From an uncultured delta proteobacterium (lineage in GTDB: Bacteria; Desulfobacterota; Desulfomonilia; Desulfomonilales; Desulfomonilaceae), in the NCBI GenBank assembly GCA_963789265.1, contig CAWBKB010000005.1:512001-576000 (forward strand): 64,000 nt of DNA, in the 5' to 3' direction. This document shows positions 7,160 through 28,733 of this stretch, in pieces. A program made the position numbers and the translations under genes. The first letter of the stretch is position 1. Every line of letters begins with the position of its first letter. The notes under the pieces were generated by a model. It was not told where the DNA came from. It did not search any database and saw only the letters and a program-made list of their open reading frames with translations.

Positions 7160-7238
7160 GACGATCAATAAGGCCATGAAACTCTGCGGTGTAAATACGC
7201 AAAATGAAGACCGGCAGGCGCTCCGCCTTGCGCGGCAC

Positions 7239-7802: not shown

Positions 7803-7855
7803 ATAAGCCTCCGGTGATGATTATGAGGAATGCACTGAAATTATTACAGTGAAGC

Positions 7856-13286: not shown

Positions 13287-14053
13287 TCCACAATCCTCCG
13301 TTGGATCGATGCAACGGGCTCTGCCACAGCCCCGGCTCGGCGTCCTGCTGCCACGAGTAATCCGTGAATCAACGCGAGAGGCGGCGGCGGGCAGCCGGGA
13401 ATCTCGACATCCACCGGAATCTCTTCGGCCACTCCAGCGCCGCAGGTGAAGCTCGGTCCAAAGACTCCTCCGGAGAGCGCACATGTGCCTACCGCAATTA
13501 CCTTTTTGGGCGTGGGCACAGCATTGTACGCTCTTTGCAACGGGAGCCGCATGTTATCCGTCACCGGACCGGCAACCAGCAATACGTCCGCTTGCCTGGG
13601 GGTCGGAGTCATGAAGAAGCCCAGCCTGTGGACGTTGTAGTAGGGCTTGCCGAGCTGTTCAATCTCGCTCAAGCATGCCCGGCAAGCTCCCGCGTCGAGC
13701 ACACGTACGTGCATAGAACGAGCAAAGGGCTTGCCCAGCCTACGTGACGAATCGGTCTCATCGGCGAGAGAAACTGCCCATTCATAACCCCACTCGCGAT
13801 CGAGAGGCTCAGACAGCCCACGCGAACACCGAAAACACTGAATGCAATGCCGGTAATCCACGGAGATTCGCTCCTCCGTAAGCCGGATAGCTTTCGTGGG
13901 ACATACGGGGACGACCGAAGACTGCGTTCCTGCTCCCCCGGTCAACATGCCGCAAGGCCGCCCGGGAGAAACGCCGGCAGCGGTCTCGACAGAGTCCGGA
14001 TATAACGTCGTCTTGGTCCCCGTGCGCAGTCCCATTAAAACCCATTTGGACAT
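13283..14053 (-). CDS. Small subunit (HycG/NuoB-like) with N-terminal ferredoxin-like segment
   Basis: CPTKAI...CIQCFRC followed by GACRAC, GTCA and IPGCPP. Confidence 0.88.
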   Translation of the reverse strand: MSKWVLMGLRTGTKTTLYPDSVETAAGVSPGRPCGMLTGGAGTQSSVVPVCPTKAIRLTEERISVDYRHCIQCFRCSRGLSEPLDREWGYEWAVSLADETDSSRRLGKPFARSMHVRVLDAGACRACLSEIEQLGKPYYNVHRLGFFMTPTPRQADVLLVAGPVTDNMRLPLQRAYNAVPTPKKVIAVGTCALSGGVFGPSFTCGAGVAEEIPVDVEIPGCPPPPLALIHGLLVAAGRRAGAVAEPVASIQRRIVE

Positions 14054-14067
14054 GTCTCACTCTCCTC

Positions 14068-15675
14068 CTAACGGTCACATTCTGCGTTCGAAAGTCCGAA
14101 TGTGGCCATAATGATGGGGAAGTCCTGAAAGGCGAAATTTTCGGCCGCCCAATGGAATCCATGCCAATTCGTGAACGACGGCGTTGTGACTCGATATCGC
14201 CCAATTCTTCCGTCGTCTCGGATACTCAACCAATGGAAGGCTGCTCCCAGCGGGGCTTCCACCCATGCCAGGCATTCACCGGCAACAATCTCAAAATCCG
14301 AGGACATAACATCCCCCTGAGGAAGCGAAGAGGCTATTTGTCGCACGATACGCGCCGATTCTTCCGCCTCACTGAATAGGACGCGGAGACGAGCATAGCC
14401 GTCCCCCTCGGATTCGACCGGTGTCCTGAATTCCAGCCCGGCATTGTAAAACCCGTAAGGCAATACCTTGCGCATATCGCGTGAAACTCCGGATCCTCTG
14501 GCAATAGGCCCCACAAGCCCGTATGAAACCGCGTTTTGAAGTGAAACCGTACCCACTTCCTCGAGGCGGTCCAAAAAGCTGCTGGAAAAACGTAACTTTT
14601 CCTGTAAGGCCTTTAATTTGTCTGCGACACGTTCGACCGACTGGCTCAAGTTTCGGCACTGATCTCCGCTCAGATCCAGCGACATCCCGCCCGGAATGCT
14701 GGTGCCGAACAAATAGCGGTGCCCCGCAATCACGCATGAAAGCCGAAGTAGCTCTTCTTCCAGAATGCCGGCCTGACTTGTGGCGACGGCCAGAGCTGTA
14801 GAACCGCAGATGCCTGTTATAGCGCCTACGTGGTGGCGCAAACGCTCCAATTCCGCCAAAAGCACACGTAAGGCTTGGCCGCGGGCAGGTGGTTGAACGC
14901 CGCAGATTTGTTCCACTGCCTGACAAAAAGCAAGCGCGTGGGCAAACGCCGAAGTCCCTGAAAAACGCTCGGCCATCAAAAGGACATGCTCAATAGGCTG
15001 CCCCTCTGCCAGTTTTTCGAGTCCACGATACTTGTAGAAAAAGCGTGGGGTGGTACGAACGACATCCTCGCCAACCGTTTCCAGGAAGAACTGAGCAGAC
15101 TCCGCGTAGTCGGAATAAACCGGCCCTATGGGCATCATAAAGGCTCCGGGGGCTTGAAGGATCTGCAAAGGCCGCCATTCCGGGTCCACTTCTTTATGGG
15201 GATATGGCACGGATGGGTCGAAATCCGACCTCATAGGGTTGACTCCTTCCGGCCATTCCTCGTGCAACACAAAATCCCCGAGCCTTGGATGGCCCTCGAA
15301 GGTGAGTCCAAAAAGGTCTTCCACTTCTCGCTCATGCCAATCCGCCGCATGAACGTGCGCGCTGATACTGGGAATAACCGTGTTTGTTTTGGGCTGGTGA
15401 AGCAGTACATGAATCTGACCACACTCGGGATCTCCATAGAAAACATAGCGGAGAAACCAGTGAGAAGAATTCTCTTGGACAATCAATGTGGCAAAGGTGT
15501 ACTTGGCATGAGAAACAAGCAGTCCGCACACTTCCTGCAACTCACCTGGGCCGCATTCAATCAGGACCGAGAGCTTCTGTGTGTCGACGTTTACCTTCAC
15601 TTCTCCTGTCCAGCGCGTCTCCAGGACCTTGAGTAATTTCTCCGGCTTCAGTGCGCAGTTAGATGAACATGGCAT
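14068..15675 (-). CDS. HycE-like (NuoC-NuoD fused) large subunit lacking NiFe cysteine motifs
   Basis: WHEREVEDLFG.F.GHP (NuoC); ERFSGTSAFAH replaces RxCGxCxxxH; ends GLSNAECDR instead of DPCxxC; GGAGG before ATG 15675. Confidence 0.9.
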   Translation of the reverse strand: MPCSSNCALKPEKLLKVLETRWTGEVKVNVDTQKLSVLIECGPGELQEVCGLLVSHAKYTFATLIVQENSSHWFLRYVFYGDPECGQIHVLLHQPKTNTVIPSISAHVHAADWHEREVEDLFGLTFEGHPRLGDFVLHEEWPEGVNPMRSDFDPSVPYPHKEVDPEWRPLQILQAPGAFMMPIGPVYSDYAESAQFFLETVGEDVVRTTPRFFYKYRGLEKLAEGQPIEHVLLMAERFSGTSAFAHALAFCQAVEQICGVQPPARGQALRVLLAELERLRHHVGAITGICGSTALAVATSQAGILEEELLRLSCVIAGHRYLFGTSIPGGMSLDLSGDQCRNLSQSVERVADKLKALQEKLRFSSSFLDRLEEVGTVSLQNAVSYGLVGPIARGSGVSRDMRKVLPYGFYNAGLEFRTPVESEGDGYARLRVLFSEAEESARIVRQIASSLPQGDVMSSDFEIVAGECLAWVEAPLGAAFHWLSIRDDGRIGRYRVTTPSFTNWHGFHWAAENFAFQDFPIIMATFGLSNAECDR

Positions 15676-15682
15676 TATGCGG

Positions 15683-17131
15683 TCACCTCCCCAGTGCATT
15701 TGCCGCCTGGCGTAAGAGCTCAAGAAGCGGCCCGGGAATATAAAGTCCGAACAGACAAACCGGGATTGCCGCCAGCGACAGACATGCAGCGTAACTCTTT
15801 GGCAACGCGGGCCATCCGGGGCGAGGCATAGGCTTTCCGAATACCATGCGGGAGACGTGAAACATGATTCCACAGAAGGCTATAACTACAAAGAGAGCCA
15901 GCATGCCCGTGATTAAGTATTGGCCGGTGGAAACTCCCGCTTTTAAGATGGTGAGTTCGCTTAAAAAGACAGCAAAGGGAGGAGCCCCTGAAATCGCCAG
16001 TGCCCCCAGGAGAAGTGACACGCCAACCAGGGGCGATTCCCGAATAAGGCCTTGTACCGAGTTAATGTCGCGCGCGCCGGCGATTCTGAGCGCGGCACCG
16101 GCGGCAAAGAAACAGAAAGATTTTGCAACTGTATGGGTAACCATCTGATAGATGGCGCCAAAATCGGCGGCAGCTCCGCCCAGGCCAACGGCCACCAAAA
16201 TAATGCCCATGTGTTTTATGGTAGAAAACGCGAAAAGGCGTTTATATTCTTTTACTTGAATCAACAGGAAGGCCGCGAAACCGGTTGACACCAAACCGAA
16301 AATCAAAATCCATTTCTCGGGGGTGCCACCTGAAATCGCTTGTACGGCCGGTGTTACTCTCAATATGGCGTAAAGAGCAGTGGAAGTCTCCACACCGGAA
16401 AGAAGCGCGCAAACCGGCGACGGCGCCTGGCTGTGAGCATCAGGAAGCCAGGTGTGGAGAGGAACCAAACCGGCCTTGGTTCCGAATCCGATAAGGATGA
16501 ACAGGAATCCTGTCTGCAGCATTGCCGGAGGCATTTTCGGCGCGGCTGCAACCAGGCCCGACCAAGTCAAAGGCCCCCCTCCCGAGAGGGTCATGCCCCA
16601 ATATAGAATCAAGATCCCGAAAAGTGCGAGTGCGGCCCCCATGCACGTGAGCACAGCATATTTCCACGCGGCTTCAACAGCCTCGGGGGTGTTCGGAAAG
16701 CTGACAAGAAATACCGACAAAAGCGTGGTTAGCTCGACCGCGATCCAAACCAGCGTGACATGCGACAAGACTGGAACAGCCAGCATCGAAACAAGGAAAA
16801 GGTTGTAGCGCCAATAATAGCGTCGCGCCCTTTCAGCTCCGTTGGATCCAACTGTCTTTCCGATGTATCCCCACGAAAAAACGGCGGCTGTGAGTCCGAC
16901 AAAGGAAACCAGCAACAGGAGCAACCCACCCAAGGCATCGCATGCGATCCATCCTTTTATTGCCACAACATTGTGGCCGGCAGAGGTTTTCAGAGCTGCA
17001 TGCAAAGAGGCGATGAAAACCACCACAGTCCCCAGGATGGTAGTCAAAGGTGCAAGGCTACGAACTTTTGTCGGAATCCAAGAAAGGGCTGCAGCAACAA
17101 CAGGTACCAGAAGGATGTATATGAGTTCCAT
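15683..17131 (-). CDS. HyfF-like antiporter-type membrane subunit
   Basis: WIAVELTT, EAAWKY and GFGTKAGLVPLHTWLPDAHSQAP motifs. Confidence 0.92.
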   Translation of the reverse strand: MELIYILLVPVVAAALSWIPTKVRSLAPLTTILGTVVVFIASLHAALKTSAGHNVVAIKGWIACDALGGLLLLLVSFVGLTAAVFSWGYIGKTVGSNGAERARRYYWRYNLFLVSMLAVPVLSHVTLVWIAVELTTLLSVFLVSFPNTPEAVEAAWKYAVLTCMGAALALFGILILYWGMTLSGGGPLTWSGLVAAAPKMPPAMLQTGFLFILIGFGTKAGLVPLHTWLPDAHSQAPSPVCALLSGVETSTALYAILRVTPAVQAISGGTPEKWILIFGLVSTGFAAFLLIQVKEYKRLFAFSTIKHMGIILVAVGLGGAAADFGAIYQMVTHTVAKSFCFFAAGAALRIAGARDINSVQGLIRESPLVGVSLLLGALAISGAPPFAVFLSELTILKAGVSTGQYLITGMLALFVVIAFCGIMFHVSRMVFGKPMPRPGWPALPKSYAACLSLAAIPVCLFGLYIPGPLLELLRQAANALGR

Positions 17132-17137
17132 AAGTTG

Positions 17138-17824
17138 CTATTCCTCTATCAGGGCGGCCATCTCGCCTACCGCGGTGGTTCCGATGTGTTCGTGGACCTT
17201 CATAATAAGGATTCCCATTACCCTTGCGATGATGAGTAACTCAAAAGCGGCAGCCAGTTCGGCTATAAGCGGAAGATTCGGGGCAATCGAAATACCGGCG
17301 AAAAATGCCCCGTTCTCCATGGACAGAAGGGCGATTACCTGTGGAACCGCCTCACGCCTCACAGTCATCGCGTAGGCTCCCAGGAGTAGACCTGCCAGAC
17401 CGATGGGCAGGTTAACCGAAGCAGCTCCTCCAGCCGGGGCCGCTTTAAGGAGGGGCACTGAAACGAAATAGGCGAAAACAACTAGGACGAGCGAAATTAA
17501 TAGGGATGTGGGGATATTCAAAGCCTGGGAGATCTCTCGGCGAGAGCGAAGTTCATTTCCCAGCCTTCCTAACAAGAGCCAGGGAAGCAATGCGACCTTG
17601 ACGGCAAGAGTTATTCCGCCGACTACAAAAAGTTCGTTCGAGCCGTTTTGGTACCCCAGGAGAAATGCAGATGCCGCGAGAAGCGCAGCCTGAATCACGA
17701 ATGTCCTAAGACACGCGAGAACCTGCCGCGTGGCAATGAGACCAAAGGCCGTCAAAAGGAAGAGAGCCGCGGCAAGCGCATTTAACTCGGTCAATGGAAG
17801 AATTGTGGTGTTTGTGCCAGGCAT
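17138..17824 (-). CDS. HyfE-like membrane subunit
   Basis: Hydrophobic 228 aa with QVIALLSMENG motif; start placed at ATG 17824. Confidence 0.85.
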   Translation of the reverse strand: MPGTNTTILPLTELNALAAALFLLTAFGLIATRQVLACLRTFVIQAALLAASAFLLGYQNGSNELFVVGGITLAVKVALLPWLLLGRLGNELRSRREISQALNIPTSLLISLVLVVFAYFVSVPLLKAAPAGGAASVNLPIGLAGLLLGAYAMTVRREAVPQVIALLSMENGAFFAGISIAPNLPLIAELAAAFELLIIARVMGILIMKVHEHIGTTAVGEMAALIEE

Positions 17825-17835
17825 GCCGGTCCCTC

Positions 17836-18787
17836 CTAAAATTGCAGCAGTCGCGTGATTACGGCAGCGACGGATGTTACAAAAGCGGCGCCGAGAAATT
17901 CCGGAATTCTGAAAAGTCTCAGTTTGGCAAGCGAGGATTCGATGGCGACCAAAACCAGGACAAATGCCAGGATTTTTGTCAAGATTAGCGGAACTGCCAG
18001 CAACAACTCTCCGACAGATTGTCCGTGAGCAAGACCCCAGGGACTGACCAGCACGTTGAGGAATATGCATAGAAGTACAAAGAACTTCATGCATCCCCCC
18101 CATTTCATCAAAGCGGCGCCTCGGCCAGAATACTCCAGTCCCTTGGACTCATCCACCATGGCTAGCTCGAAATGGCCGGAAGGGCTGTCTACAGGGATGC
18201 TTCCGGTTTCAGCGATGATCAGCATCAGGAACGACAGAACCACCAGCACATGCGCGGGTTCAAAGAAATTCGCCATAGGCGTGACCCAGTGTTTTTGAAC
18301 GATGTATGGAATGGTGGAACCTGCAACGAATGAGACGGTGAAGAAAACAATCATGAACACCGGTTCGGCTAAAAATCCCACCATCCTAGTACCGGCTGGC
18401 CCCCATTGGACCGTACGGGTTTGCAGTATCAATGGCCGCAAGCGTCGCAAAAAAGCCACCGAGAGCTAGAATAAAGCCACCTCCCAGCATGTCTGCCATG
18501 AAAGCGAAGAAGAGCGGGTAGCTCGTGAGGACAGGTATGAGCAGCGTCACGAAGATCGGCGTGACAAATACTATGTACGGGGTGACGCGAAAAATCCAAG
18601 AAGAGTGCTCGGATACGACTTCGTCTTTGTGAAAGAGCTTCCATATATCAAAGTACGGCTGAAAAACGCTGGGGCCTCGCTTGGACTGGATTCGCTCTTT
18701 AAGGCGACCAAGCACTCCCTTTACGAGAGGGGCAAAAGCCATTACCACGAGCACCTGCATTAAATTAAACAGGATTTTCTGGGCCAT
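17836..18787 (-). CDS. HyfC/HycD (NuoH-like) membrane subunit, frameshift near 18388
   Basis: IQSKRGPSVFQPYFDIWKLFHK, AETGSIPVD and LEYSG...MKW motifs; AGGAGG RBS. Confidence 0.88.
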
Positions 18788-18899
18788 GCGTTTACCTCCT
18801 GTCGCCATAGCCGCTTGTTAACAAGTCATGTCGAATCGCTTTCAAGCGAGTGATATTGGTTAGCTATCGAATAAGAGATAACCGGCAAATGGAGAATTG

Positions 18900-18936
18900 C
18901 ACTGACCTGAGCACCATCATGGTGCTCAGGTCAGTG
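18900..18936. repeat. Perfect palindrome, 18-bp arms with 1-nt spacer, in the ehr leader
   Basis: CACTGACCTGAGCACCAT-C-ATGGTGCTCAGGTCAGTG. Confidence 0.9.
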
Positions 18937-19059
18937 GCACCCAACATCCATTCACGAGGTGCTGGGTGCCACGGATCGAGGCTTTGTGAGATCCGTGCTG
19001 TATTTATCGCTTGATAACGAACCAATATCACTGCTCGAATACTCCCTATATAAGTCGAG

Positions 19060-19096
19060 AAAAACAAAAGACCCGCACCAGCAAAGCTGTGCGGGC
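19060..19096 (-). terminator. Second intrinsic-terminator-like hairpin in the ehr leader
   Basis: Minus strand GCCCGCACAGC-TTT-GCTGGTGCGGGT followed by CTTTTGTTTTT. Confidence 0.6.
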
Positions 19097-19108
19097 TACG
19101 TTTAAACT

Positions 19109-19137
19109 AAAAACCCACCCAGCTTACACGGGGTGGG
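19109..19137 (-). terminator. Riboswitch-controlled terminator (ehr unit)
   Basis: CCCACCC-loop-GGGTGGG-TTTTT; 5' arm overlaps antiterminator TGGGGTAGGA/TCTTACCCCA. Confidence 0.75.
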
Positions 19138-19175
19138 GTAAGATCTATCTCTTAAGAGACTCCTACCCCATAGCG

Positions 19176-19233
19176 GTAGGAGTCATAAGCTCATAGGAAA
19201 AATCCCGGAGCAGTTCAGGCAGACTCCATTGCC
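19176..19233 (-). ncRNA. Fluoride riboswitch (crcB motif) upstream of ehr operon
   Basis: Minus strand GGCAATGGAGTCTGCC-TGAACT-GCTC...GAGC-TTATGACTCCTAC: P1 GGCA/TGCC, pseudoknot GGAGT/ACTCC, stem GCTC/GAGC. Confidence 0.85.
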
Positions 19234-19273
19234 TTCAATAGTGTCGCGCATAATTACAAAACAAATGCACCCT

Positions 19274-19279
19274 TGTCAA
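19274..19279 (-). promoter_or_regulatory. Putative sigma70 -35 box for the ehr riboswitch unit
   Basis: TTGACA 41 nt upstream of the aptamer, same spacing as in the other two units; -10 box weak. Confidence 0.55.
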
Positions 19280-19339
19280 GCATGCTGAGAGCAACCAAGC
19301 GATCTGTTTCCTAAGTGCAGTCCTGTGTCATTTTTTAGG

Positions 19340-19413
19340 GTTAAGATTGCTTCGCTGCGCTCGCAATGACAGGTCCCCGAATGTCCTTGCGAGCGCAGCG
19401 AAGCAATCTTAAC
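19340..19413. repeat. REP-like long inverted repeat, same hairpin family as the cargo at 9706 and 25571
   Basis: GTTAAGATTGCTTCGCTGCGCTCGCAATGACA-10nt-TGTCCTTGCGAGCGCAGCGAAGCAATCTTAAC. Confidence 0.85.
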
Positions 19414-19507
19414 TTTGATGCGGACTCATATTTATGCCATCGCGTACTACACCCCCTTGAGCCACCCGAGAGATGACTGCAAGGTTGCCGGCTCCACAAG
19501 TGCTGTA

Positions 19508-20254
19508 CTACAAATCGAGCACAGCGGACAGCGTCTCAGTCAGTTCCATAAAATCCGTTTGCATCTCCTTCGCCGGATCTCTCGCTTCACCAGCCGAATA
19601 AGTATAGCCAAAGTGTTTGTTGATGGCGAACGCTCTGTCTTTGCAATAAGCTTCAAGGGAAGGTTTGGTCATGCTGCCAATCAGGTACGCCCCAATTGAA
19701 CCACCCCATCTGAAATGGGGCCCGTCTCCTCCGCTGTCACCAACGATCACTACTTGATTCGGCCCTATCCCCGAAGAATTCATTACGGATTGGGTATTCT
19801 TGGGCTTGTCTTCAATTTCATTGACCCAATACATGTAACGAGGGGCTTCCGACTCTCCCAAAAAACGGATTAGAGGATTGGAGGCCACAAATGGAACATC
19901 AGGGATGAGATTCCGGGCAAGCATCCGCTGGAAATAGCCTTGCGGTCCGGTGGTATTAATCATGAAAAGAATGCCATGATCCCGGCACCATTGGATGAAA
20001 TCAGGGACGCCGCGATACGTAGCGAAGTTAGCGTCGAGATAAGCATCCATCTGATCTACCGTAATGGGAGCAGGAATCAGGGCCGAGATTTGTTGGGTGG
20101 CCTGGGTCAGAGAAATCTTGTTGCCCGTATACTCGGTAAAGATTTTAGATAGCTTTGGTTCCAGATCCGGATAGGTAAATGAAATCGGATCGAATGGACC
20201 GGATGGCGCCAAACATTGGTTCCAATCCGATGAAACGAGAGCCTGGTACTTCAT
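19508..20254 (-). CDS. HAD-superfamily hydrolase-like protein with atypical motif I
   Basis: VSSDWNQCL (motif I-like), INTTG (II), KPK (III), VGDSGGD (IV); start placed at ATG 20254. Confidence 0.7.
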   Translation of the reverse strand: MKYQALVSSDWNQCLAPSGPFDPISFTYPDLEPKLSKIFTEYTGNKISLTQATQQISALIPAPITVDQMDAYLDANFATYRGVPDFIQWCRDHGILFMINTTGPQGYFQRMLARNLIPDVPFVASNPLIRFLGESEAPRYMYWVNEIEDKPKNTQSVMNSSGIGPNQVVIVGDSGGDGPHFRWGGSIGAYLIGSMTKPSLEAYCKDRAFAINKHFGYTYSAGEARDPAKEMQTDFMELTETLSAVLDL

Positions 20255-20427
20255 TTCTCTTATCCTTCCTTTCTCCTCAGATAAATTGCAACCGCTTCCC
20301 CGCCACCGCCGTGTCGCCAAGCCCAACGAAACTTATCGTGGGTAATGTACAGCGCGAAGAACATCTCGGTTATTTTCTCAGTTCGAAGATTCGGCAGGCC
20401 CAGCGGGGAATCACTCCAGCTTCTGCC

Positions 20428-21936
20428 CTAATTTCGCTCATAGTCCCTTCTGAATGTCCTCTTGTAAAGGTCTTCGCCATAGGCGGTCTGCAACGGCTCT
20501 CCTTCGATTAGCCGAAAAGTTCGTGTCCCGTCGGTTCGCCTTTCTGCTCGTAAGAAAAGGGCGTTGTTCACTTTCTTGTCAAAAAAATCGCGGGCGAATT
20601 CATACAAATGCGTGACAAAGAAAACCTTGATGTTTTTCTCCAATAATGCGCTGACTATCTGCCTTGCGATCTCCGAGCCTTCTCTTGTATTGGTTGCTGC
20701 AAACGATTCATTGAAAAGCACCAGGGAATTTGACGTTATCATGTCTGCAATATCACTCATCCTGCTCAGTTCTTCGTCAAATTTCCCGCTTTTCATGGTA
20801 GGATCTTCTTCCCTCTTGTAGTGCGTGAAAAGGCCACTGCAAATATTGGCACAGAAAGATTCAGCCGGCACAAACATGCCGCATTGCATCATCAATTGGG
20901 ACAAACCTATGCTTCGCAAAAAAGTCGATTTGCCGCCCTGGTTGGCCCCTGTAATGATCACGAGGTCTTTGTTCTCTGCGTTCACATCGTTACCAACGAT
21001 ATCTCGCTTCATGGTAAGGGCCAAACAGACATCGTATAAGCCCTTAAAGGAATGTCTGCGTTCGCCGGCAGCCACCGGTACGGGAAAAGATATTGGCTCC
21101 CCCATTTGGGCAAGCTGTTCAGATAGATTTAAACAGCCGATGTAAAAGGCCAATTCGACTCGTAACATTTCAAAAAAACTATCAATATGATCGGCAGATT
21201 GAGCAAGTGCGTTGGCAACCAGTCTGATCCCCCTGTTTCTTAATTCCGCCACTGCGTTGGCACCGGCTTCATCCCGATCGGCGACATAATAGGTGTAAAC
21301 GGGAGCGCTTTCGCCAAAGATCCGCTCCAACCAACTTTGTCTTTTATCCAGTGGCTTGCGAAGCACGTAATTGGTGCCTTCGTTGCCTTTTCCTAATTCG
21401 GCACTGATCAAAACCCCCTGGCGAAATTTCAATTCCTTTAAATAATTTTCGACAATGGCGAAATATTCATCATCAAGTTCTCTTTTGATCATCGCGAAAA
21501 ACGTGGTAAAGCCTTCTGACTCAAATTTTTCTGCATGCTCGTCGGCAATATTCTTTAGCTTTTTGAGCAAGCCCACAAACATTTGCAGCATTTCTATCGC
21601 GCTATGCAGGAGACTCGAGGGAAGTTTGCTGAAAAAGCCCATCCAACTTCTTCTCTTGTTTTCAATTGATTCAATCGGGAGTTGATAGATGTCCCTGACA
21701 ATAGCCGAATTTTTCAGGCAATCCTTGAGTATGTTTTGGCGATAAATCAATGTATCCGGATCGGCTGAACCGCACAATACAGCGCTCTTTGCCACTTCAA
21801 ACAAGAATTTGTCACCAAGTGCCACGGCATGGAACATCGTGTTCAATTCCAGGTCCTGTGTTAGCGTTTGTTCATTCGACGGCAATTCCTGCTTCAGGTC
21901 GAAATCTCGATCTTTATACATAAGGAAAGCCTTCAT
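20428..21936 (-). CDS. MutS-related ATPase, subunit B (domain V, no mismatch or Smr domain)
   Basis: TGANQGGKST, LFNESFAATN and FVTHLYE motifs; ATG overlaps the upstream TGA (ATGA). Confidence 0.88.
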   Translation of the reverse strand: MKAFLMYKDRDFDLKQELPSNEQTLTQDLELNTMFHAVALGDKFLFEVAKSAVLCGSADPDTLIYRQNILKDCLKNSAIVRDIYQLPIESIENKRRSWMGFFSKLPSSLLHSAIEMLQMFVGLLKKLKNIADEHAEKFESEGFTTFFAMIKRELDDEYFAIVENYLKELKFRQGVLISAELGKGNEGTNYVLRKPLDKRQSWLERIFGESAPVYTYYVADRDEAGANAVAELRNRGIRLVANALAQSADHIDSFFEMLRVELAFYIGCLNLSEQLAQMGEPISFPVPVAAGERRHSFKGLYDVCLALTMKRDIVGNDVNAENKDLVIITGANQGGKSTFLRSIGLSQLMMQCGMFVPAESFCANICSGLFTHYKREEDPTMKSGKFDEELSRMSDIADMITSNSLVLFNESFAATNTREGSEIARQIVSALLEKNIKVFFVTHLYEFARDFFDKKVNNALFLRAERRTDGTRTFRLIEGEPLQTAYGEDLYKRTFRRDYERN

Positions 21937-23468
21937 GATTTTATGCGTTCCTTTAAACAACCATAAGTGATGCGATGCTTCTCGGCGATGGATAGCGCGT
22001 ATGAAAGCCCGTCAGCAGGCCTTCTCACAATTTTATATGTTCGCAATGCAGGATTTTCCGGGACAACCGTGCTGACCATGCTGACGGTTTGTTCGCCCAA
22101 AGAAGCCAATTCGTCGATGAATGTCACCCAAACGCACAAGGAGCCTAATTCCATTATTCTTTCCATTACCTTCTTGCTCAAGAAAACTGCGTCTTGTAAT
22201 GTTGCGGAAGTGAATATTTCATTTAGTATCAGAACGCTGTTCGGCGTGGCCCGGTTTAGAATATCGTGAACCCTGACCAGGTCTTCTTGCAGTTTGCCGC
22301 GGAGATTCCTGATATCTTCGCGCCTCTCAAAATGCGTAAAGATCCTGTCAAACAGAAAGAGTCGTGCTTTCTTGCCCGGCACTGGACAGCCCAAGACGGC
22401 TAGATAATGTAGCTGCCCGAAAGTGCGGCCAAAGGTTGTCTTACCTCCCTGGTTCGGACCGGATACCACAAATATGCGTTCCTTACCTTTCAGGTAAAAA
22501 TCATTACAGACGACGGACGAATTCTCGGTAAGGAGCTTATGCGCCAGGGCTAAATCAAATCCTTCATGATCATAAACTTCCTTGTCCGTACCGGAAAGCT
22601 GCGGGTAACAGAATTTCAACCCGGTCAACCTGAGCTTTTCGATATACTTTAAGTAGGCAACATAAAATTGTATTTCCCGGTCAAAGACGGCTATAGTTTG
22701 GTCCAGATAACCGCGGTTATGTTCGCAATAATTATCGAGATTTAGAAACACTTCGGGATATAATTTGGCTACGAAGTCTAATATTGCCGCTTCAACATGA
22801 TTCATGCCCGACCACATTGGGGGCTTGGTCTTGTAATTTTTTACGTCACCCTGTTTAAATTTTTCGAATGTTTTTTCCACCTCGACGCTGTAATCAATCT
22901 CAGATTCATACTTGCGCACCTTGACAGAGTTATCCTTAACGAGCATGCAATATTTTACCGTTGATAATTCGGCTTTAAGCTTTTTCGTTTCCGCCAGTAG
23001 TGACCCAAAGCCACCGGAGTTGACATAGTTCGTCGCGTATTCGCGGAACATCAAAAGGCCTCGTGATTTCAAATTGGCAAGGTTCAGATCGCGTACCAGG
23101 CTAGTAACGGCCTCGCAATAAATTTCTACTGCCTCCAAAAACCATCCTTCTTTATGGTACTTGTAGTGAAGCTTATCTTCCAGGGAAAGGTATCGATGCA
23201 TTGTAGTCATTTTGAGCGCAAATGATTCTATATTTTCCAGCAGAATTTCGTTTTCAAGGTCCTGTGCTATTTCTTGGCGGTACTTGATGGCATCGATACC
23301 ATTTAACGAAGTGTAAAAAAGCGGTTTTAAATTGTATGTCTCCTTACCGGCCGTAATTGCATCCACAATCTGATCGAGATTCAAATCAACAAAGAAGGCA
23401 GGCGCCTCAAGGATTTCCTCTTTTGCGCCGTCTTCAGGTCTTTCAAATAGTATGCTGTGGAAAGTCAT
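21933..23468 (-). CDS. MutS-related ATPase, subunit A (domain V, no mismatch or Smr domain)
   Basis: SGPNQGGKTT, IFTHFE, ILNEIFTS, WVTFIDEL and SYALSIA motifs. Confidence 0.88.
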   Translation of the reverse strand: MTFHSILFERPEDGAKEEILEAPAFFVDLNLDQIVDAITAGKETYNLKPLFYTSLNGIDAIKYRQEIAQDLENEILLENIESFALKMTTMHRYLSLEDKLHYKYHKEGWFLEAVEIYCEAVTSLVRDLNLANLKSRGLLMFREYATNYVNSGGFGSLLAETKKLKAELSTVKYCMLVKDNSVKVRKYESEIDYSVEVEKTFEKFKQGDVKNYKTKPPMWSGMNHVEAAILDFVAKLYPEVFLNLDNYCEHNRGYLDQTIAVFDREIQFYVAYLKYIEKLRLTGLKFCYPQLSGTDKEVYDHEGFDLALAHKLLTENSSVVCNDFYLKGKERIFVVSGPNQGGKTTFGRTFGQLHYLAVLGCPVPGKKARLFLFDRIFTHFERREDIRNLRGKLQEDLVRVHDILNRATPNSVLILNEIFTSATLQDAVFLSKKVMERIMELGSLCVWVTFIDELASLGEQTVSMVSTVVPENPALRTYKIVRRPADGLSYALSIAEKHRITYGCLKERIKS

Positions 23469-23539
23469 AGCAAACACCCAGGGACACTTGCCATCCCGTT
23501 TGCCTTCGGCATTGAATTGTAGCTTGCTCCAATGAAACC

Positions 23540-23561
23540 AAAAAACCCACCTTGCGGTGGG
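23540..23561 (-). terminator. Riboswitch-controlled terminator (MutS unit)
   Basis: Minus strand CCCACC-GCAA-GGTGGG-TTTTTT. Confidence 0.8.
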
Positions 23562-23599
23562 AGAGTCTTTATTGCACGACCCGCCGCAATGTTCTCGCG

Positions 23600-23645
23600 G
23601 CAGGAGTCATCAGCCTGTCAGGCGGTTTGGGGGAACTCCATCCCC
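23600..23645 (-). ncRNA. Fluoride riboswitch upstream of the MutS-related pair
   Basis: Minus strand GGGGATGGAGTTCCCC-CAAACC-GCCTGACAGGC-TGATGACTCCTGC, near-consensus crcB motif. Confidence 0.93.
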
Positions 23646-23684
23646 TCACGTTTCTTTCTTTCCCTACTTCTCTACTTTTTACAA

Positions 23685-23690
23685 AGTCAA
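23685..23690 (-). promoter_or_regulatory. Putative -35 box for the MutS riboswitch unit
   Basis: TTGACT 40 nt upstream of the aptamer. Confidence 0.5.
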
Positions 23691-23763
23691 GGGCCTCACG
23701 GAAATCGCCGCGGCTATATCATAAGTCAGACTGTCGGGTTTTTCGAAACTGGTTTACAAGATT

Positions 23764-24180
23764 CTACCGGCGCCCAGTCGCCACTACCTCCGCAACTTCT
23801 CTGAGCTTCCCTATCAGCAAGGCCGTCCTAGGATCGAGGTAATCCGCCAAGCCGGGCGGAACCTCCCCGTATCTGCGAAGACGAGAGCCTTCAAGCTCCG
23901 AAAGCGAGACCCAAAGTACCGAGCACGAACTCAAGATCATTTTCTCTGCAATGTGAACCGAACCGTCCAGGTTCAACGTGTCCCGCATTTCTCTAAGGAT
24001 AGTTTGCATGTCCTCCACGAGTTCTGAAATTGTTCGTCCTTGTTCGGACGAAAGGCTGTTCCGAACCTCGTACAGGGTAGACCTGACCTTCTTGCCCGTT
24101 GCCCATTCATCGAACTGGCAGAGAGCCTTGTCCAAGAGGTACAGTGTTGTCGAGATTCCGCGAATATGGTTTTCACTCAT
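23764..24180 (-). CDS. Hypothetical helical protein
   Basis: 138 aa, 44 nt downstream of enolase; LRRYGEVPP motif recalls N-terminal domains of some bacterial dynamin-like proteins (recollection, unverified). Confidence 0.7.
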   Translation of the reverse strand: MSENHIRGISTTLYLLDKALCQFDEWATGKKVRSTLYEVRNSLSSEQGRTISELVEDMQTILREMRDTLNLDGSVHIAEKMILSSCSVLWVSLSELEGSRLRRYGEVPPGLADYLDPRTALLIGKLREVAEVVATGRR

Positions 24181-24224
24181 GGGTAAGATCTTCTCTTTCC
24201 CGGCGAATTTTCCACGCTACGGCC

Positions 24225-25502
24225 TTATTTAGGCAGCGGCGACTCGAAAACAGCCGCCTTGCCTAGTTCCGCCTCAATCTCTAGGAGCCGGTTGTATTTT
24301 GCGATTCGCTCACTGCGACTCGTTGACCCGCTCTTAAGTTGTCCGCCACCCATTGCAACGGCAAAGTCAGCCAAAAAGGTATCTTCGGTTTCGCCGGAAC
24401 GATGGGAAATCACATATCCCCAGCCGGCCTTGTGACACAGTTGAATTGCTTCAATCGTTTCGGTAACTGTACCAATTTGATTCAGCTTGATCAGCGCTGC
24501 ATTGGTGGTCTTTTCCTTAATGCCGCGGGCAATGAACCGTGTATTGGTCACATAGATGTCGTCGCCCACGATCTGAACCTGCTCGCCGAGCACGGCCGTA
24601 TGCTCGCGAAATCCTTCCCAATCATTCTCTGCAAGACCGTCTTCAATTGAAACTATTGGATACTTTTCAACCCAGGATTTGTAGAGATCCGTCATTTCCG
24701 AGCTGCTCTTTTTGCCCTGACCTGATTTGCTCAGGTTATATAGGCCGTCCTCAAAGAAAGAACTGGCTGCCGGATCAAGCGCCAGGGCTATGTCCTTGCC
24801 CGGTTTAAAGCCTGCTGCCTCTATAGCCTCGAGAATTACCTGGCACGCCTCATCGTTGCTTTTGAGATTGGGTGCGAACCCGCCCTCGTCGCCGACGCTC
24901 GTTGTATATCCTTTGCCCTTGAGAATTTTCTTCAGGGCGTGGAAACTCTCGGCACTGTAACGCAGGGCTTCAGCGAATGTTGGAGCGCCAATCGGCGTTA
25001 CCATGAACTCCTGAAAATCCACGCTATTGTCCGCATGCTTTCCGCCATTCAGTATATTATTCTGGGGTACGGGGATTTTCACAGTCCCGGGACCTCCCAG
25101 GTAAGCATACAAAGGGAGGCCGGAGACCACGGCCGCCGCACGAGCCGCCGCCATAGAAACACCCAGAATGGCATTGGCCCCGAGCTTGCTTTTAGTGGGC
25201 GTCCCGTCCAGTTCGATCATTACTCGGTCAAGCTCTGCTTGCCGTGTCGACGGAAGGCCGACTACCGCCGGAGCGATTATCCGGTTCACATTATCTACGG
25301 CCTTGAGAACACCTTTGCCACCGTACCGCTTCTGATCTTTGTCGCGCAATTCAAGTGCCTCGTTCTCCCCCGTGGAAGCCCCTGAAGGGACAGAAGCCGA
25401 AGCCGTTACTCCGTTGCTCAACTCCACAAAAACACGGATCGTCGGGTTTCCACGAGAGTCGAGAACCTCCAGTGCCCTAACAGAAACGATCTTGTCATCC
25501 AT
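24225..25502 (-). CDS. eno: Enolase
   Basis: [33 protein letters not shown] and SHRSGETED motifs. Confidence 0.97.
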
Positions 25503-25534
25503 AACCGTGTCCTTTCTTCAATTGTTGACATTAA

Positions 25535-25683
25535 GTACCAATTCACTTACGCGGAGAAGCTTCTGTCACTTGTCATTGCGAGGAGTCCAGCGACGAAGCA
25601 ATCTAAACGGCGTCTAACGGAAGAGATTGCTTCGCTTTGCTCGCAATGACAATCTTTCACCGCTCGTAAGTGAAAATGCGTGC
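25535..25683. mobile_element. MITE, sister copy of 9670-9816
   Basis: Left end GTACCAATTCACTTACG, degenerate right end CGTAAGTGAAAATGCGTGC; GACATTAA duplicated at 25527-25534 and 25684-25691; same internal hairpin doublet. Confidence 0.85.
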
Positions 25684-25687
25684 GACA

Positions 25688-26428
25688 TTAAGCGGTATTT
25701 GTTTCTCCCATGATCGACAGCAAAAGTCTCCACCCGCTGCACCAACCAACCGCGCTTATCAAAGCGGCTGAATCTTCCTCGGTTTGGCTGCCCTGGAACT
25801 CGAACTGGAACGACCGTGCATATTTTACGAGGTGGTCAAATATGTATGGCACCGAGGACCGGTGGACAGACATTTCACCAGCCAATCTCGAGGATTCGTC
25901 TTCAATCAGGTGCTGCCTGCATCTCAGAGTTGAGGCCGTGCCGGCGCATCTTCCGCAAATGGTGTCGCGCCAATAGGGTTCGGTTCTTTTGGCCAACCGG
26001 AGCAGTTCGCCCAGATCTCGCCCTTGTCGAACGATTTTCTCTTTTACGATTCCTTTGCTGTGAGGGCCGTATCCCTCCTCACACATTAAGCATGGGCCCT
26101 TATCCCCGAGCCGTCTTCTCAATCGCCCATGTTGTGCCGGTCCGTTCAACTGGAAAGCATTCAAAGCGGCTCTCATAAGATCCTCATATAGAAGAGCGGG
26201 GCCGTGCATGTACCCGCTACGAAAGGACGCTTCCACGATCATCCAACCCCACGCATGGCGCTCGCAGAAACCCCAGGCTTTGCGCATACGCTGCCGCGTC
26301 GAGGGGTTCATGATGCTTCCCTGAATAAACCACCAGAGAAAGTGAATTTCCCCGGGCGAGAGCCGGAAAGCATCCGGAGGCGACAACTGCAACGCAGTAC
26401 CTGTGGTACGAATGTGGGTGTGCTGCAT
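25688..26428 (-). CDS. Cys/His-rich hypothetical protein (DUF6062-like, probable Zn binding)
   Basis: GFCERH, CLMC, CGRC and CRQH motifs; the longer ORF start runs through a repeat, so ATG 26428 is preferred. Confidence 0.7.
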   Translation of the reverse strand: MQHTHIRTTGTALQLSPPDAFRLSPGEIHFLWWFIQGSIMNPSTRQRMRKAWGFCERHAWGWMIVEASFRSGYMHGPALLYEDLMRAALNAFQLNGPAQHGRLRRRLGDKGPCLMCEEGYGPHSKGIVKEKIVRQGRDLGELLRLAKRTEPYWRDTICGRCAGTASTLRCRQHLIEDESSRLAGEMSVHRSSVPYIFDHLVKYARSFQFEFQGSQTEEDSAALISAVGWCSGWRLLLSIMGETNTA

Positions 26429-26468
26429 TATTTTCTTGCGGCTGAGCACAATCGGTTCCTTTGCAATA

Positions 26469-26640
26469 GTCTCGGAAGTATTGTCGGCATACGTGATGCA
26501 TGTTGGCGCCCAATTTAATTTGGTGGGACAGGCTTCCAGCCTGTCGCTGATGGACGGGCAGGATGCCCGTCCCCACTGCATGGTGCTCGTTGCCCACAGA
26601 TCATTTTCTCTTTCCGTGATTACTTTCGAGAATCTCTTTA
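26469..26640. repeat. REP doublet (GTGG foot) inside an imperfect inverted-repeat shell; related copy at 42724-42840
   Basis: GTGGGACAGGCTTCCAGCCTGTC...GACGGGCAGGATGCCCGTCCCCAC; tail TTCCGTGATTACTTT.GAG shared with the 42.8 kb copy. Confidence 0.7.
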
Positions 26641-26698
26641 CATCCCTACCGATTATTCGGTCGACGTTCCGAACCACAAAATAGGATCATTTGTCCGT

Positions 26699-28525
26699 TT
26701 ATTTCTGACTTTCTTCACAGATCCCGGTCAAGGCATGTGCAGCGGATTCCAACCGCGCCACTTCATCGAGGATTGCTTCGGCATGTTCCTTCCTCTTGGT
26801 ATACGCGGCCTGAATAGCTCCGTGCGTGGCTGCAATGGTTTCTTCAAAACGTTGATCCAGTGATAAGGCGAAGCCGCGAAACGCGTTGTTAAGGTTTTGC
26901 AAGGTCGCCCATCGAAGGTTTTCCACGTTCTGCCGAACCAGCGCGTCAATCTGTCTGCCCAGGCGCTTCTTGAGTCTGCTGATACGAAGAGACGCCGGCA
27001 GGAGTCTATCAAGGGCCTCTTCCGGAATCACAATTGGCAGAGTGGGTACCCGCTTCCTGAGCACCCAGTGAGGCCGCCGCTTCACCTCAAACGCTTCGGA
27101 GCTTTCCGGAGCATGATATGGGATGTTAAACAGCTCTGCCGCGGCTTTACGAATCGCTTGGATCAACTCGTCTGCTCGCTGCTGGTGCGGACGCAATGTT
27201 TCCGTCACATGCCGGCCAAATCCTTGAGTCACATCCTCGGCCGAACCTTGGAAGAATGAGGTTACCTCCTCTGCCAGAGCATCCATAACAGTCGCTTCCT
27301 TCACTTCCCCGTCTTTCATGGCTGAGAAAGATGCCTCCACTACGCTCTCAAGGTGATCTACGGACGTTTGCCGGAGCGCTTCGGCCTGCTGCTCCAGTGA
27401 TTCCAGCGTACGTTTTCTGTCACCGGTCAACAAATCTTGCGCGGCGACTCGCTGGCCTTCCGCATTTTTCAGCTCTCTTTCGAAGACTTGTAAGCGGCTT
27501 TCCAGGTCATCCAGGGGCATTTGCAGGGTACGGATCGCCAGCCGGAGTCTCATCACAACTTCTTCAAGAGCGTCGGTAACTTTTCGTCCCACGGCTTCAC
27601 GCAAAGCGTTCGCCTTTTCGGAAACGAGAAAACATATCAGATGGTCTTCGACCTCATTTAAGCCGCTCTGGGTCCATAAGTCGGCATCTCCGAAAAGCTT
27701 GGCGTCGAGACCGCGGCGTGAAGATACACAGAAAATCGGATGATCGTTTGTCACCTGAAGTTTTTCGGTGAGCACTTTCTTGAAAAAAGCTAAAGCGGTT
27801 TCTCTTTCATGCCCATTGAGGTAATCCACCTTGTTAAAGATGAAAAAGAGACGGGAAACTCTGGATCGGACCGCTTTCAGAAACTCGGCTTCCACTTCTG
27901 TGAGGGGCGGGTCCGCCGAGACGACAAATAGTGCCGCGTCGCACTGGGGAAGAAAACTGAGAGTAGCTTCCGTATTGTGCGTAAAAGTGGACCCAATCCC
28001 AGGGGTATCAATCAAAACGACGCCATGTTGGAGAATGGCAGCGGGGTGAAAGATCTCCACCTGAAGAACTCCAAGTCGGTTTTTCGGGTTGCCCTCTTCG
28101 GTGACAAAGCTTTGTAAGATTTCGGCAAGCTGTTCGGAGGTTTTTCCGGCAAATTCCTTCACGGGTCTTTCGTCCAGGTAGCAGACCCGGATTTTTCGCT
28201 CGGGACCATATTCCACAAAAGTTGGGATGGCCGTTAACGGCACAACGGAAGTCGGCAAAAGCGCCTCGCCAAGAAAGGCGTTTAGAAGTGTGCTCTTGCC
28301 ACGCTTGAATTGTCCCAATACTGCCAGGTGGAAGCGCCCTTCTTCCAGACACGTGCGGAGGGCGAGTAATCTCTCCCGGTCGCCGTAGAACTGACTTCCG
28401 AGAGATTCCACAATTCTTAACGCTTCGCCGAGGAGTAGCTGGAAATCGATTATAGCTCGGGAATCTTGCTCGTCCGGGCAAGTTAGCGTTTCTAAAGCGG
28501 AATTCTCGCCTATCTCGGATCTCAC
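26699..28525 (-). CDS. Bacterial dynamin-like GTPase
   Basis: G1 GQFKRGKS, G2 LPTSVVPLT, G3 DTPG, G4 NKVD; long helical C-terminus; AGGAGG before GTG. Confidence 0.92.
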   Translation of the reverse strand: MRSEIGENSALETLTCPDEQDSRAIIDFQLLLGEALRIVESLGSQFYGDRERLLALRTCLEEGRFHLAVLGQFKRGKSTLLNAFLGEALLPTSVVPLTAIPTFVEYGPERKIRVCYLDERPVKEFAGKTSEQLAEILQSFVTEEGNPKNRLGVLQVEIFHPAAILQHGVVLIDTPGIGSTFTHNTEATLSFLPQCDAALFVVSADPPLTEVEAEFLKAVRSRVSRLFFIFNKVDYLNGHERETALAFFKKVLTEKLQVTNDHPIFCVSSRRGLDAKLFGDADLWTQSGLNEVEDHLICFLVSEKANALREAVGRKVTDALEEVVMRLRLAIRTLQMPLDDLESRLQVFERELKNAEGQRVAAQDLLTGDRKRTLESLEQQAEALRQTSVDHLESVVEASFSAMKDGEVKEATVMDALAEEVTSFFQGSAEDVTQGFGRHVTETLRPHQQRADELIQAIRKAAAELFNIPYHAPESSEAFEVKRRPHWVLRKRVPTLPIVIPEEALDRLLPASLRISRLKKRLGRQIDALVRQNVENLRWATLQNLNNAFRGFALSLDQRFEETIAATHGAIQAAYTKRKEHAEAILDEVARLESAAHALTGICEESQK

Positions 28526-28586
28526 GATAAGCCCTCCTGTTTGTACCTTTCAATCAGCGGAGTTCCACGGATAGACGGTTGAAAAT

Positions 28587-28609
28587 AAAAAACCCACCTT
28601 TTGGTGGGT
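28587..28609 (-). terminator. Riboswitch-controlled terminator (dynamin unit)
   Basis: Minus strand ACCCACC-AAAA-GGTGGGT-TTTTT. Confidence 0.8.
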
Positions 28610-28647
28610 ATCCGCAGGACCGGTCTCCCACCGCGAAGTCTCCGACG

Positions 28648-28693
28648 GCAGGAGTCATCAGCCCGTGACGAGCATTTGGGGGACTCCATCCCC
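28648..28693 (-). ncRNA. Fluoride riboswitch upstream of the dynamin-enolase unit
   Basis: Minus strand GGGGATGGAGTCCCCC-AAAT-GCTCGTCACGGGC-TGATGACTCCTGC. Confidence 0.9.
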
Positions 28694-28733
28694 TTTTAGC
28701 CATTTCCTATTTTGTATAGCCACGGTTGTGAAA

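Follow-up and report, generated by a model that had tools for sequence, protein, structure and literature searches.

A MutS4A/MutS4B gene pair with asymmetric ATPase sites behind a fluoride riboswitch in an uncultured member of the Desulfomonilaceae

The closest described relatives of the genes treated here are MutS4A and MutS4B, which the accessible text of Lin, Nei and Ma (2007, Nucleic Acids Res 35:7591, PMC2190696) defines as adjacent genes whose products carry only the MutSac domain, with the stop codon of one overlapping the start codon of the other, and which it places in scattered bacteria and archaea, including Thermoplasmata. The portion of Weinberg (2010, PMC2864571) available to us lists mutS as one of the genes that follow the crcB RNA motif and reads it as a DNA repair gene; the motif was later shown to sense fluoride, as related in the accessible part of Sherlock and Breaker (2020). 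Here, we describe such a pair in an uncultured delta proteobacterium of the family Desulfomonilaceae (assembly GCA_963789265.1), where it lies on the minus strand of positions 512,001 to 576,000 of contig CAWBKB010000005.1, a stretch of 64,000 nucleotides (nt) that we refer to as the window. The window pair is a further member of the known and widespread MutS4A/MutS4B family, and its locus is ordinary for that family. Both its name and its riboswitch link are already in print, which the first-pass annotation of this DNA had missed. A 2012 study by Baker is also said to be a source on the fluoride riboswitch regulon and its MutS-related genes.

Literature on these proteins is scarce. We found no biochemical study of MutS4, and Lin 2007 and Kim et al. 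2017 were the sole papers treating it, in a search that left subscription journals mostly outside. According to the accessible part of the latter, Mycobacterium smegmatis carrying a MutS4 operon showed recombination tracts that were more frequent and longer (Kim et al. 2017). The word MutS is absent from both the 2024 Stockbridge/Wackett review and the Enterobacter cloacae FRM paper.

The window pair shares everything that the accessible passages of Lin 2007 give for MutS4A/B, namely, a domain V signature only, the A-then-B order, the stop/start overlap and a distribution over bacteria and archaea, while those same passages do not mention a riboswitch, an active-site asymmetry or domains III and IV. 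The assignment was made by these published features; Lin's proteins came from Thermoanaerobacter, Thermoplasma and Ferroplasma, and Thermoanaerobacteraceae and Thermoplasmata relatives are found among our sets. In a FastTree phylogeny of the ATPase region, the A sequences (73 rows) and the B sequences (72 rows) each fell on one side of a branch, with Shimodaira-Hasegawa-like (SH-like) supports of 99 and 98, values obtained with no bootstrap and with only the source genome's own MutS1 and MutS2 as outgroups. Archaeal loci from Thaumarchaeota, Methanolinea and Thermoplasmata were among the rows. The first-pass annotation had suggested a phylogeny that would include the paired MutS4-like groups, and these supported clades, MutS4A and MutS4B, proved to be the answer.

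The two genes (coordinates in Table 1) code for paralogs with 27% identity over 211 amino acids (aa) (expect value [E] of 3e-23). The junction between them reads ...AAATCATGAAGGCT... on the minus strand (also given as AAATCATGAAGG), and from these letters, AAATCATGAAGG, it follows that the TGA of A and the ATG of B share four bases (ATGA). The longest open reading frame (ORF) of B, 20428..21960 on the minus strand, opens with a TTG, and the 502-aa product starts from an internal ATG at 21936. The real start of A is probably the ATG that lies 9 bases inside the GTG-initiated ORF, since the ortholog consensus opens with MxFxSILF and the commonest ortholog length is 511 aa. The earlier description of two paralogs of about 500 aa with an ATGA overlap is thus borne out by the ORF lengths (514 and 502 aa), the junction letters and the level of identity. 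Searches with A and with B returned at least 8,000 matches each, and the orthologs are conserved at 45 to 75% identity across bacterial phyla and archaea.

In both proteins, domain V of MutS was the only Pfam match (E of 1.9e-18 for A and 2.7e-24 for B); MutS_I, MutS_II and Smr did not match either of them. When 70 A and 68 B orthologs were searched at E up to 1, MutS_V was present in all of them and MutS_III gave a weak match in 11 of the 70 A orthologs, while MutS_I, MutS_II, MutS_IV and Smr could each have matched one ortholog at most, because the 25 families found, ordered by member count, end at a single member. In AlphaFold models built on alignments of these 70 and 68 sequences (predicted local distance difference test [pLDDT] of 88.5 for A and 88.3 for B), a long, helical N-terminal half, into which a beta hairpin is inserted at about residues 176 to 193, precedes the ATPase domain at the C-terminal end. 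Residues 25 to 511 of the A model align to residues 270 to 789 of Escherichia coli MutS (Z of 28.2, 408 aligned residues, root mean square deviation [rmsd] of 5.2), and residues 16 to 491 of the B model align to residues 261 to 777 (Z of 28.0, 375 aligned residues, rmsd of 4.8). The best structural matches included MSH2, MSH3 and MSH6 chains, with Z up to 30.8 within an overall range of 26 to 31. As judged from these predicted structures, A and B each span the core/lever, clamp and ATPase domains of MutS (III-IV-V), without domains I and II and without a KOW/Smr tail. The first-pass label of "ATPase-only" proteins consequently does not hold, as about 320 N-terminal residues of both chains are modeled as MutS core/lever and clamp.

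Neither chain reached the score cutoff of the MutS1, MutS2 or KamC model. Both scored far under the cutoff of the MutS1 model NF003810 (75 and 88 bits against 480), and their structural alignment begins after domains I and II. Membership of MutS2 was likewise rejected, with 59 and 80 bits against a cutoff of 400 for TIGR01069, no Smr match and chains that end with the ATPase domain. For the KamC reactivase model NF052383, the match covered the ATPase domain only (42.4 bits for A and 83.9 bits for B against a cutoff of 300). The source genome has a separate canonical MutS1 gene and a separate MutS2-like gene elsewhere. These scores, together with the lack of any domain I match by profile search across the orthologs, uphold the previous view that the pair is not a mismatch-repair enzyme; no GxFYE string occurs in the two translations and no Smr domain was matched, as also stated before.

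The MutS2 cores of Thermus thermophilus (7vuf/7vuk), Thermotoga maritima (9kce) and Bacillus subtilis (7qv3) have the same domain extent as MutS4, about 470 to 500 aa, and align to the two models with Z of 25 to 28.5 over 355 to 430 residues. For 7vuk 1-469 and 9kce 1-495, the fit was as good as for MutS1 (Z of 26 to 28.5). MutS2, however, is homodimeric, has the canonical Asp-Glu in Walker B and possesses KOW and Smr domains, while MutS4 consists of two diverged chains with Asn-Glu and no C-terminal tail. MutS2 acts in ribosome collisions, and the pair could by analogy be a translation or ribosome rescue factor that splits or clears ribosomes stalled by fluoride-poisoned translational GTPases. 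The resemblance of the models to MutS2 cores as much as to MutS1, including the B. subtilis MutS2-disome structure 7qv3 (Z of 26.6 and 27.0) and the T. thermophilus and T. maritima proteins, speaks for this role. We consider it improbable nonetheless, given that the KOW and Smr domains, which dock MutS2 on collided ribosomes, are lacking in A and B, that the TIGR01069 scores are so low and that the pair moves between Bacteria and Archaea, whose ribosome surfaces differ.

The nucleotide-binding motifs were mapped by residue-level alignment to E. coli MutS, Thermus aquaticus (Taq) MutS and T. thermophilus MutS2. These alignments have no gap between the "DRIFT" block and Walker B, which makes the mapping firm. 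Both chains have an intact Walker A, with GPNQGGKTT for A and GANQGGKST for B. In place of the Walker B Asp (E. coli D693), A (LILNE) and B (LFNE) carry Asn, with the next residue, the catalytic Glu, retained. At the position of the H-loop His (E. coli H728), A has Phe (VTFIDE) and B has His (VTHLYE). Finally, the signature that acts in trans, Ser-Thr-Phe in E. coli (S668-F670), has become Gly-Lys-Leu in A and, in B, Gly-Lys-Phe. What had been noticed in the first pass on Walker A (GxNQGGK(T/S)T), Walker B and the H-loop is therefore confirmed by the alignments to E. coli and Taq MutS.

Counts over 75 A and 72 B sequences, the window pair included, showed that these features are a family-wide trait of MutS4. 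Asn occupied the Walker B position in 74 of the 75 A rows (the other being a gap) and in 72/72 B rows; the H-loop residue was Phe in 73 of the A rows, the other two having a gap, while every one of the 72 B rows had His there. Lys was seen at the signature position in 72/75 A rows and 68/72 B rows; most of the remaining ones have Arg. Asn against Asp at Walker B was compared with five canonical references, and the source genome's own MutS1 and MutS2 carry the canonical LVLLDE. No description of the site asymmetry or of the Asn and Lys changes was found in the literature searched, from which subscription journals were mostly excluded.

A counterpart of the Asn has been made in the laboratory. 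In the engineered E. coli MutS D693N (PDB 3k0s), the metal pocket was empty in the crystal, ATP affinity was independent of Mg, and the ATPase activity was retained but became strongly dependent on Mg; the accessible text of the same paper stresses how metal, nucleotide and the signature loop in trans balance each other electrostatically (Lebbink 2010, PMC2857095). The residue change and the aligned position are the same as in MutS4. On the other hand, D693N is engineered and impairs a homodimeric repair enzyme, whereas the Asn of MutS4 is natural, invariant and joined by a signature-loop Lys in trans. The eukaryotic MSH2-MSH6 and MSH2-MSH3 complexes are like MutS4 in having two paralogous chains and non-equivalent composite ATP sites (for MutS4, the dimer is our inference), but the MSH proteins have retained the Walker B Asp along with domains I and II. 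The asymmetry of MutS4 lies in the H-loop, with His in one chain and Phe in the other, and comes in addition to an Asn shared by both chains. Heterodimeric ABC ATPases and exporters with one degenerate site are another analog of such an asymmetric pair.

To see how constant the pairing is, we scanned one genome per species and kept the best 80 of 97 A relatives. In all 80 loci, the ortholog of B starts within a few bases of the end of A (tblastn). Among the 79 callable junctions, 72 have the 4-nt overlap, three overlap by 1 nt and one (L056) has a gap of 47 nt; three more (L002, L014 and L043) show the ATGA with an A gene that is frameshifted or interrupted. Frameshifts, in-frame stops or insertions were seen in the orthologs of L002, L010, L014, L016, L032, L034 and L043; these are either pseudogenes or assembly errors. 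A search that started from B was positive in 5 of 201 genomes of the source phylum, the source genome counted, and in none of three genomes of the source family, and A was directly upstream of B in the other 4/4 genomes found in this way. The distance matrices of A and B over 64 loci were strongly correlated (Mantel r of 0.94, with 0 of 999 permutations as high), and mean divergence was equal (0.447 for A and 0.448 for B). Of the findings that would have spoken against the first-pass proposal, homologs usually occurring singly and a domain I detected by profile search were not obtained.

Among relatives longer than 900 aa, 17 of 20 contain both parts in a single chain, A first and then B. The match covers the A part incompletely in several of them; in those with two full-length halves, the linkers measure 0 to 37 aa. 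Where the motif patterns matched, VTF is in the N-terminal half and VTH in the C-terminal half. These fusions (P0241 to P0259) come from several lineages, and 8 of the 17 fusion clusters hold 4 to 11 member sequences. By the Rosetta-stone argument, such A-then-B fusions are evidence for the two proteins functioning as a single molecule. Taken with the adjacency and the family-wide Phe/His and Asn residues, they agree with the earlier proposal of an obligate A plus B unit with one consensus and one deviant ATP site. In one fused protein (P0246), a DUF6062 domain precedes MutS4A; a DUF6062 gene (7129-7803) follows MutS4B in locus L001.

The pair was also found on 45 plasmid records, including those of Klebsiella, Enterobacter, Citrobacter, Salmonella, Burkholderia and Rhodococcus, and conjugative and mobilizable plasmids of Enterobacteriaceae carry it beside crcB and eno. 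On the Citrobacter amalonaticus Y19 plasmid (L085, NZ_CP011133.1 96246-115769), a riboswitch-like hit is followed by an antiporter gene, usp, MutS4A and MutS4B, while the opposite arm, with its own riboswitch-like hit, carries a P-type ATPase gene, crcB, gpmA, eno and usp. This patchy and plasmid-borne occurrence is common in conflict systems, and with A and B only 27% identical, separate roles are conceivable, so that the pair might be two independent homodimeric ATPases sharing an operon or an antiphage or other conflict system. We give this very little credit. The 80/80 adjacency with a conserved start/stop overlap, the equal and correlated divergence, the fusions and the complementary site asymmetry all argue for a joint function, and the regulon context is fluoride, not phage. 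A defense-system reading was rejected, as PADLOC found nothing for A and a marginal P-loop match for B (NsnB, E of 3e-4) and PHROGs gave only two unannotated MutS-like families.

The first-pass annotation had placed a near-consensus fluoride riboswitch ahead of A, and the Rfam model RF01734 confirmed it over its full length (positions 1 to 64, E of 7.2e-13, gathering score of 34), with the aptamer running 9 bases past the end of the segment described earlier. It lies 117 nt upstream of the GTG of A on the same strand. Between the two, there is a hairpin that resembles an intrinsic terminator (stem 23561..23546, CCCACC-GCAA-GGTGGG, followed by a T-run), and the predicted fold of the leader has a minimum free energy of -51.3 kcal/mol (z of -3.1). 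As an antiterminator, GCGGCGGG could pair with CCCACCGC. The promoter-like site upstream matches 9 of 12 consensus positions and is only a weak positional hint, as the region holds eight such sites against 6.4 expected from shuffles.

Rfam found 16 fluoride riboswitches in 15 of 20 MutS4 loci scanned. A covariance model (R1) that we built from 19 of these riboswitch sequences, with which the window aptamer scores 65 bits, gave 123 matches in 66 of the 80 loci. A riboswitch on the same strand upstream of A was found in 61/80 loci, in 38 of them within 300 nt, in 13 at 301 to 1,500 nt and in 10 farther away. In the archaeal loci L029 and L038, there is none upstream of A, where a TiaS gene is located, and the riboswitch comes right after MutS4B, ahead of crcB; L032 and L047 also have a riboswitch hit after B. 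In the two closest Desulfomonilaceae-like relatives, a hotdog protein of the FlK type (fluoroacetyl-CoA thioesterase family) is encoded between the riboswitch and MutS4A (L002:5530-5955 and L004:5356-5925); it is absent from the window.

In the window, the pair is part of a fluoride island (11139-28702, minus strand) with three riboswitches, at 28642-28702, 23594-23654 and 19170-19242, which are the sole fluoride riboswitches found in the 6.06-Mb assembly. The first heads the genes of a dynamin-like GTPase, a 329-aa protein, an enolase and a 138-aa protein (Table 1); of the other two, one heads MutS4A/B and one a hydrogenlyase/Mrp-like membrane complex. Within this last cluster, the NADHdh (HyfC/NuoH-like) gene (17836-18808, minus strand) is split into overlapping ORFs (18386-18808 and 17836-18459) by a frameshift or a sequencing error. 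The HAD-like gene downstream may be cotranscribed with B and is not a conserved partner (2/80 loci). The leader with a terminator-type platform matches the fluoride regulon, a mutS gene behind the motif is named in the accessible part of Weinberg (2010, PMC2864571), and the island also shares enolase, formate-hydrogenlyase-like complexes and antiporters with that regulon. Unlike the typical regulon, however, none of the three riboswitches heads a known fluoride exporter. No family match to CrcB was found in the 95.6%-complete assembly; CLC homologs are present on other contigs.

Table 1. Features of the MutS4 locus and its surroundings (window coordinates)
Feature	Position	Strand	Description
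MutS4A (A)	21933..23477	-	514 aa from GTG; probably 511 aa from ATG at 23468; MutS domains III-IV-V (models)
MutS4B (B)	20428..21936	-	502 aa from ATG; MutS domains III-IV-V (models)
Fluoride riboswitch aptamer (crcB motif, RF01734)	23594..23654	-	Rfam, 56.1 bits
Expression platform	23536..23593	-	Hairpin able to sequester the 3' strand of the aptamer, then terminator-like hairpin and T-run
Promoter-like site (TCGAAA, 17-nt spacer, TATGAT)	23718..23746	-	Upstream of the riboswitch; weak
Dynamin-like GTPase	26699-28525	-	Dynamin_N, E of 2e-28; right behind riboswitch 28642-28702
329-aa protein	25688-26677	-	No convincing Pfam or NCBIfam match; relatives in 3/80 loci
138-aa protein	23764-24180	-	No convincing Pfam or NCBIfam match; relatives in 4/80 loci
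Enolase	24225-25502	-	Second copy; other enolase on contig C3
HAD-like protein, 272 aa	19508..20326	-	Downstream of B; TIGR01488 weak, 24.2 bits against a cutoff of 45

Relatives of the island proteins were looked for in the 80 loci. Those of the dynamin-like GTPase were found in 22 (on the same strand in 20), those of enolase in 17 and those of the MFS protein in 15, with the remaining proteins confined to the few loci already given. No other island protein recurs in most of the loci, and a conserved third partner was therefore rejected. A Pfam survey of flanking genes, which took in 145 of the 263 flanking ORFs, those of the 42 loci L001 to L042, showed recurring dynamin-like GTPases, MFS proteins, CrcB, DUF190, enolase, HEAT/zinc-ribbon proteins, Usp, antiporters and phosphatases. 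Among the neighbors of the pair, enolase, CrcB, DUF190, pyrophosphatase, Usp, the antiporters and the dynamin-like GTPase are genes of the fluoride regulon. No DNA-metabolism genes recur beside the pair in this survey.

Another candidate role is that of a reactivase chaperone, which would use ATP to remove tightly bound Mg-fluoride-phosphate from poisoned enzymes such as enolase, in analogy to the MutS-like KamC reactivase. B matches the KamC reactivase ATPase (NF052383) with an E of 1e-23, and enolase neighbors the pair in the window and in the 17 loci mentioned above. Yet enolase is absent from the other 63 of the 80, the KamC match is far under its cutoff, restricted to the ATPase domain and no better than the match to MutS1, and there is no conserved protein partner besides A and B themselves. 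All this makes a reactivase very improbable.

A further candidate is a role in DNA recombination or repair, in which the heterodimer would clamp branched or damaged DNA and alter recombination, being induced as fluoride disturbs replication and repair. The clamp-like beta hairpin region of the modeled III-IV-V fold would suit this role, the M. smegmatis result of Kim et al. 2017 agrees with it as far as the accessible part of that paper goes, and the accessible part of Weinberg 2010 (PMC2864571) had read the gene in this sense. However, A and B have neither a domain I nor a nuclease domain, and the recurring neighbors stand for ion transport, glycolysis, phosphatase activity and stress, with no DNA metabolism among them; moreover, the experiment, by the same accessible account, was a single gain-of-function assay with the whole operon. 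This role, which we regard as possible but rather unlikely, overlaps with the heterodimeric clamp that we prefer and set out below, and differs from it only by naming the substrate and the purpose.

We consider it fairly probable that MutS4A and MutS4B are obligate partners in a heterodimeric clamp, a nucleotide switch whose coordination of Mg is weakened and which is induced by fluoride. What the data show is the identity of the pair, its translational coupling, its domain architecture, the site asymmetry and the riboswitch link; the dimer, the choice of the hydrolytic site, the logic of Mg and fluoride and the substrate are inferred. When fluoride rises, the aptamer would fold and the terminator hairpin would be bypassed, as predicted for an ON riboswitch, so that A and B would be made from one mRNA, with the start of B inside the stop of A. 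The two chains would then pair through their ATPase domains, as in all solved MutS proteins, to give two composite ATP sites. The site built by B, with its H-loop His, would be of the catalytic, hydrolytic type, while the one built by A, with Phe, probably binds ATP and turns it over slowly or only regulates. With the Mg-coordinating Asp of Walker B changed to Asn and the Ser-Thr of the trans signature changed to Gly-Lys, weak binding of Mg at the nucleotide is predicted; as the missing Asp is accompanied by a conserved signature Lys in trans, the site may be seen as re-balanced and Mg poor. During fluoride stress, the dimer would open and close, driven by ATP, as a clamp on a universal polymer, most likely nucleic acid. 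A universal target is suggested by the fact that the pair works after transfer among bacterial phyla, archaea and plasmids, and the models suggest that the polymer would be held between the two clamp arms.

The altered metal site may also let the clamp continue to work while ordinary NTPases are poisoned by complexes of Mg and fluoride. It is largely in the form of metal-fluoride complexes that fluoride poisons enzymes of phosphoryl transfer, and ADP-BeF3 is taken by canonical MutS, as a MutS-ADP-BeF3-DNA structure exists (1nne, by its title). On these two grounds, we speculate that the MutS4 site might keep switching under fluoride. In its strongest form, this would be a "fluoride-hardened" switch in which the Asn removes a ligand of Mg and the signature Lys replaces its charge, so that ATP binding and clamp closure would be free of tightly held Mg, ADP-MgFx would be unable to trap the sites, and a clamp function of the MutS/MutS2 type on DNA or on stalled nucleoprotein complexes would continue. 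We regard continued switching under fluoride, in either form, as unlikely.

Several observations weigh against the heterodimeric, fluoride-induced clamp. Co-inheritance and fusions are indirect evidence for binding between A and B, and some of the fused entries are single-member clusters that could be artefacts of frameshifts or gene calling. The terminator is one consensus match, of a kind not enriched in the region (five found against 6.2 expected). No upstream riboswitch was found in 19 of the 80 loci, so that fluoride control is the rule but not universal; four of these have no upstream DNA, while loci such as L036, L042, L058 and L077 have 4.7 to 6 kb of it. The lack of recurring DNA-metabolism neighbors makes the nucleic-acid substrate a guess from the fold. 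The connection between Mg and fluoride draws on one engineered mutant of a distant paralog, and the only printed experiment, in the accessible part of Kim 2017, ties MutS4 to recombination in M. smegmatis, not to fluoride. Lastly, the P-loop, DTPG and NKVD motifs in the translation of the dynamin-like GTPase look canonical, which argues against a general hardening of NTPases in the regulon; a parallel change in that protein was accordingly rejected.

The pair is nevertheless a long-unexplained member of the fluoride regulon that is very widespread and also borne on plasmids. If true, the hardened switch would explain why a "repair" gene stands behind a fluoride riboswitch. Whatever the outcome, the description of the family-wide site asymmetry and of the Asn and Lys changes is a useful residue of this work, and, together with the A-B fusions, these features make the unexplained function of MutS4 addressable by specific and cheap experiments.

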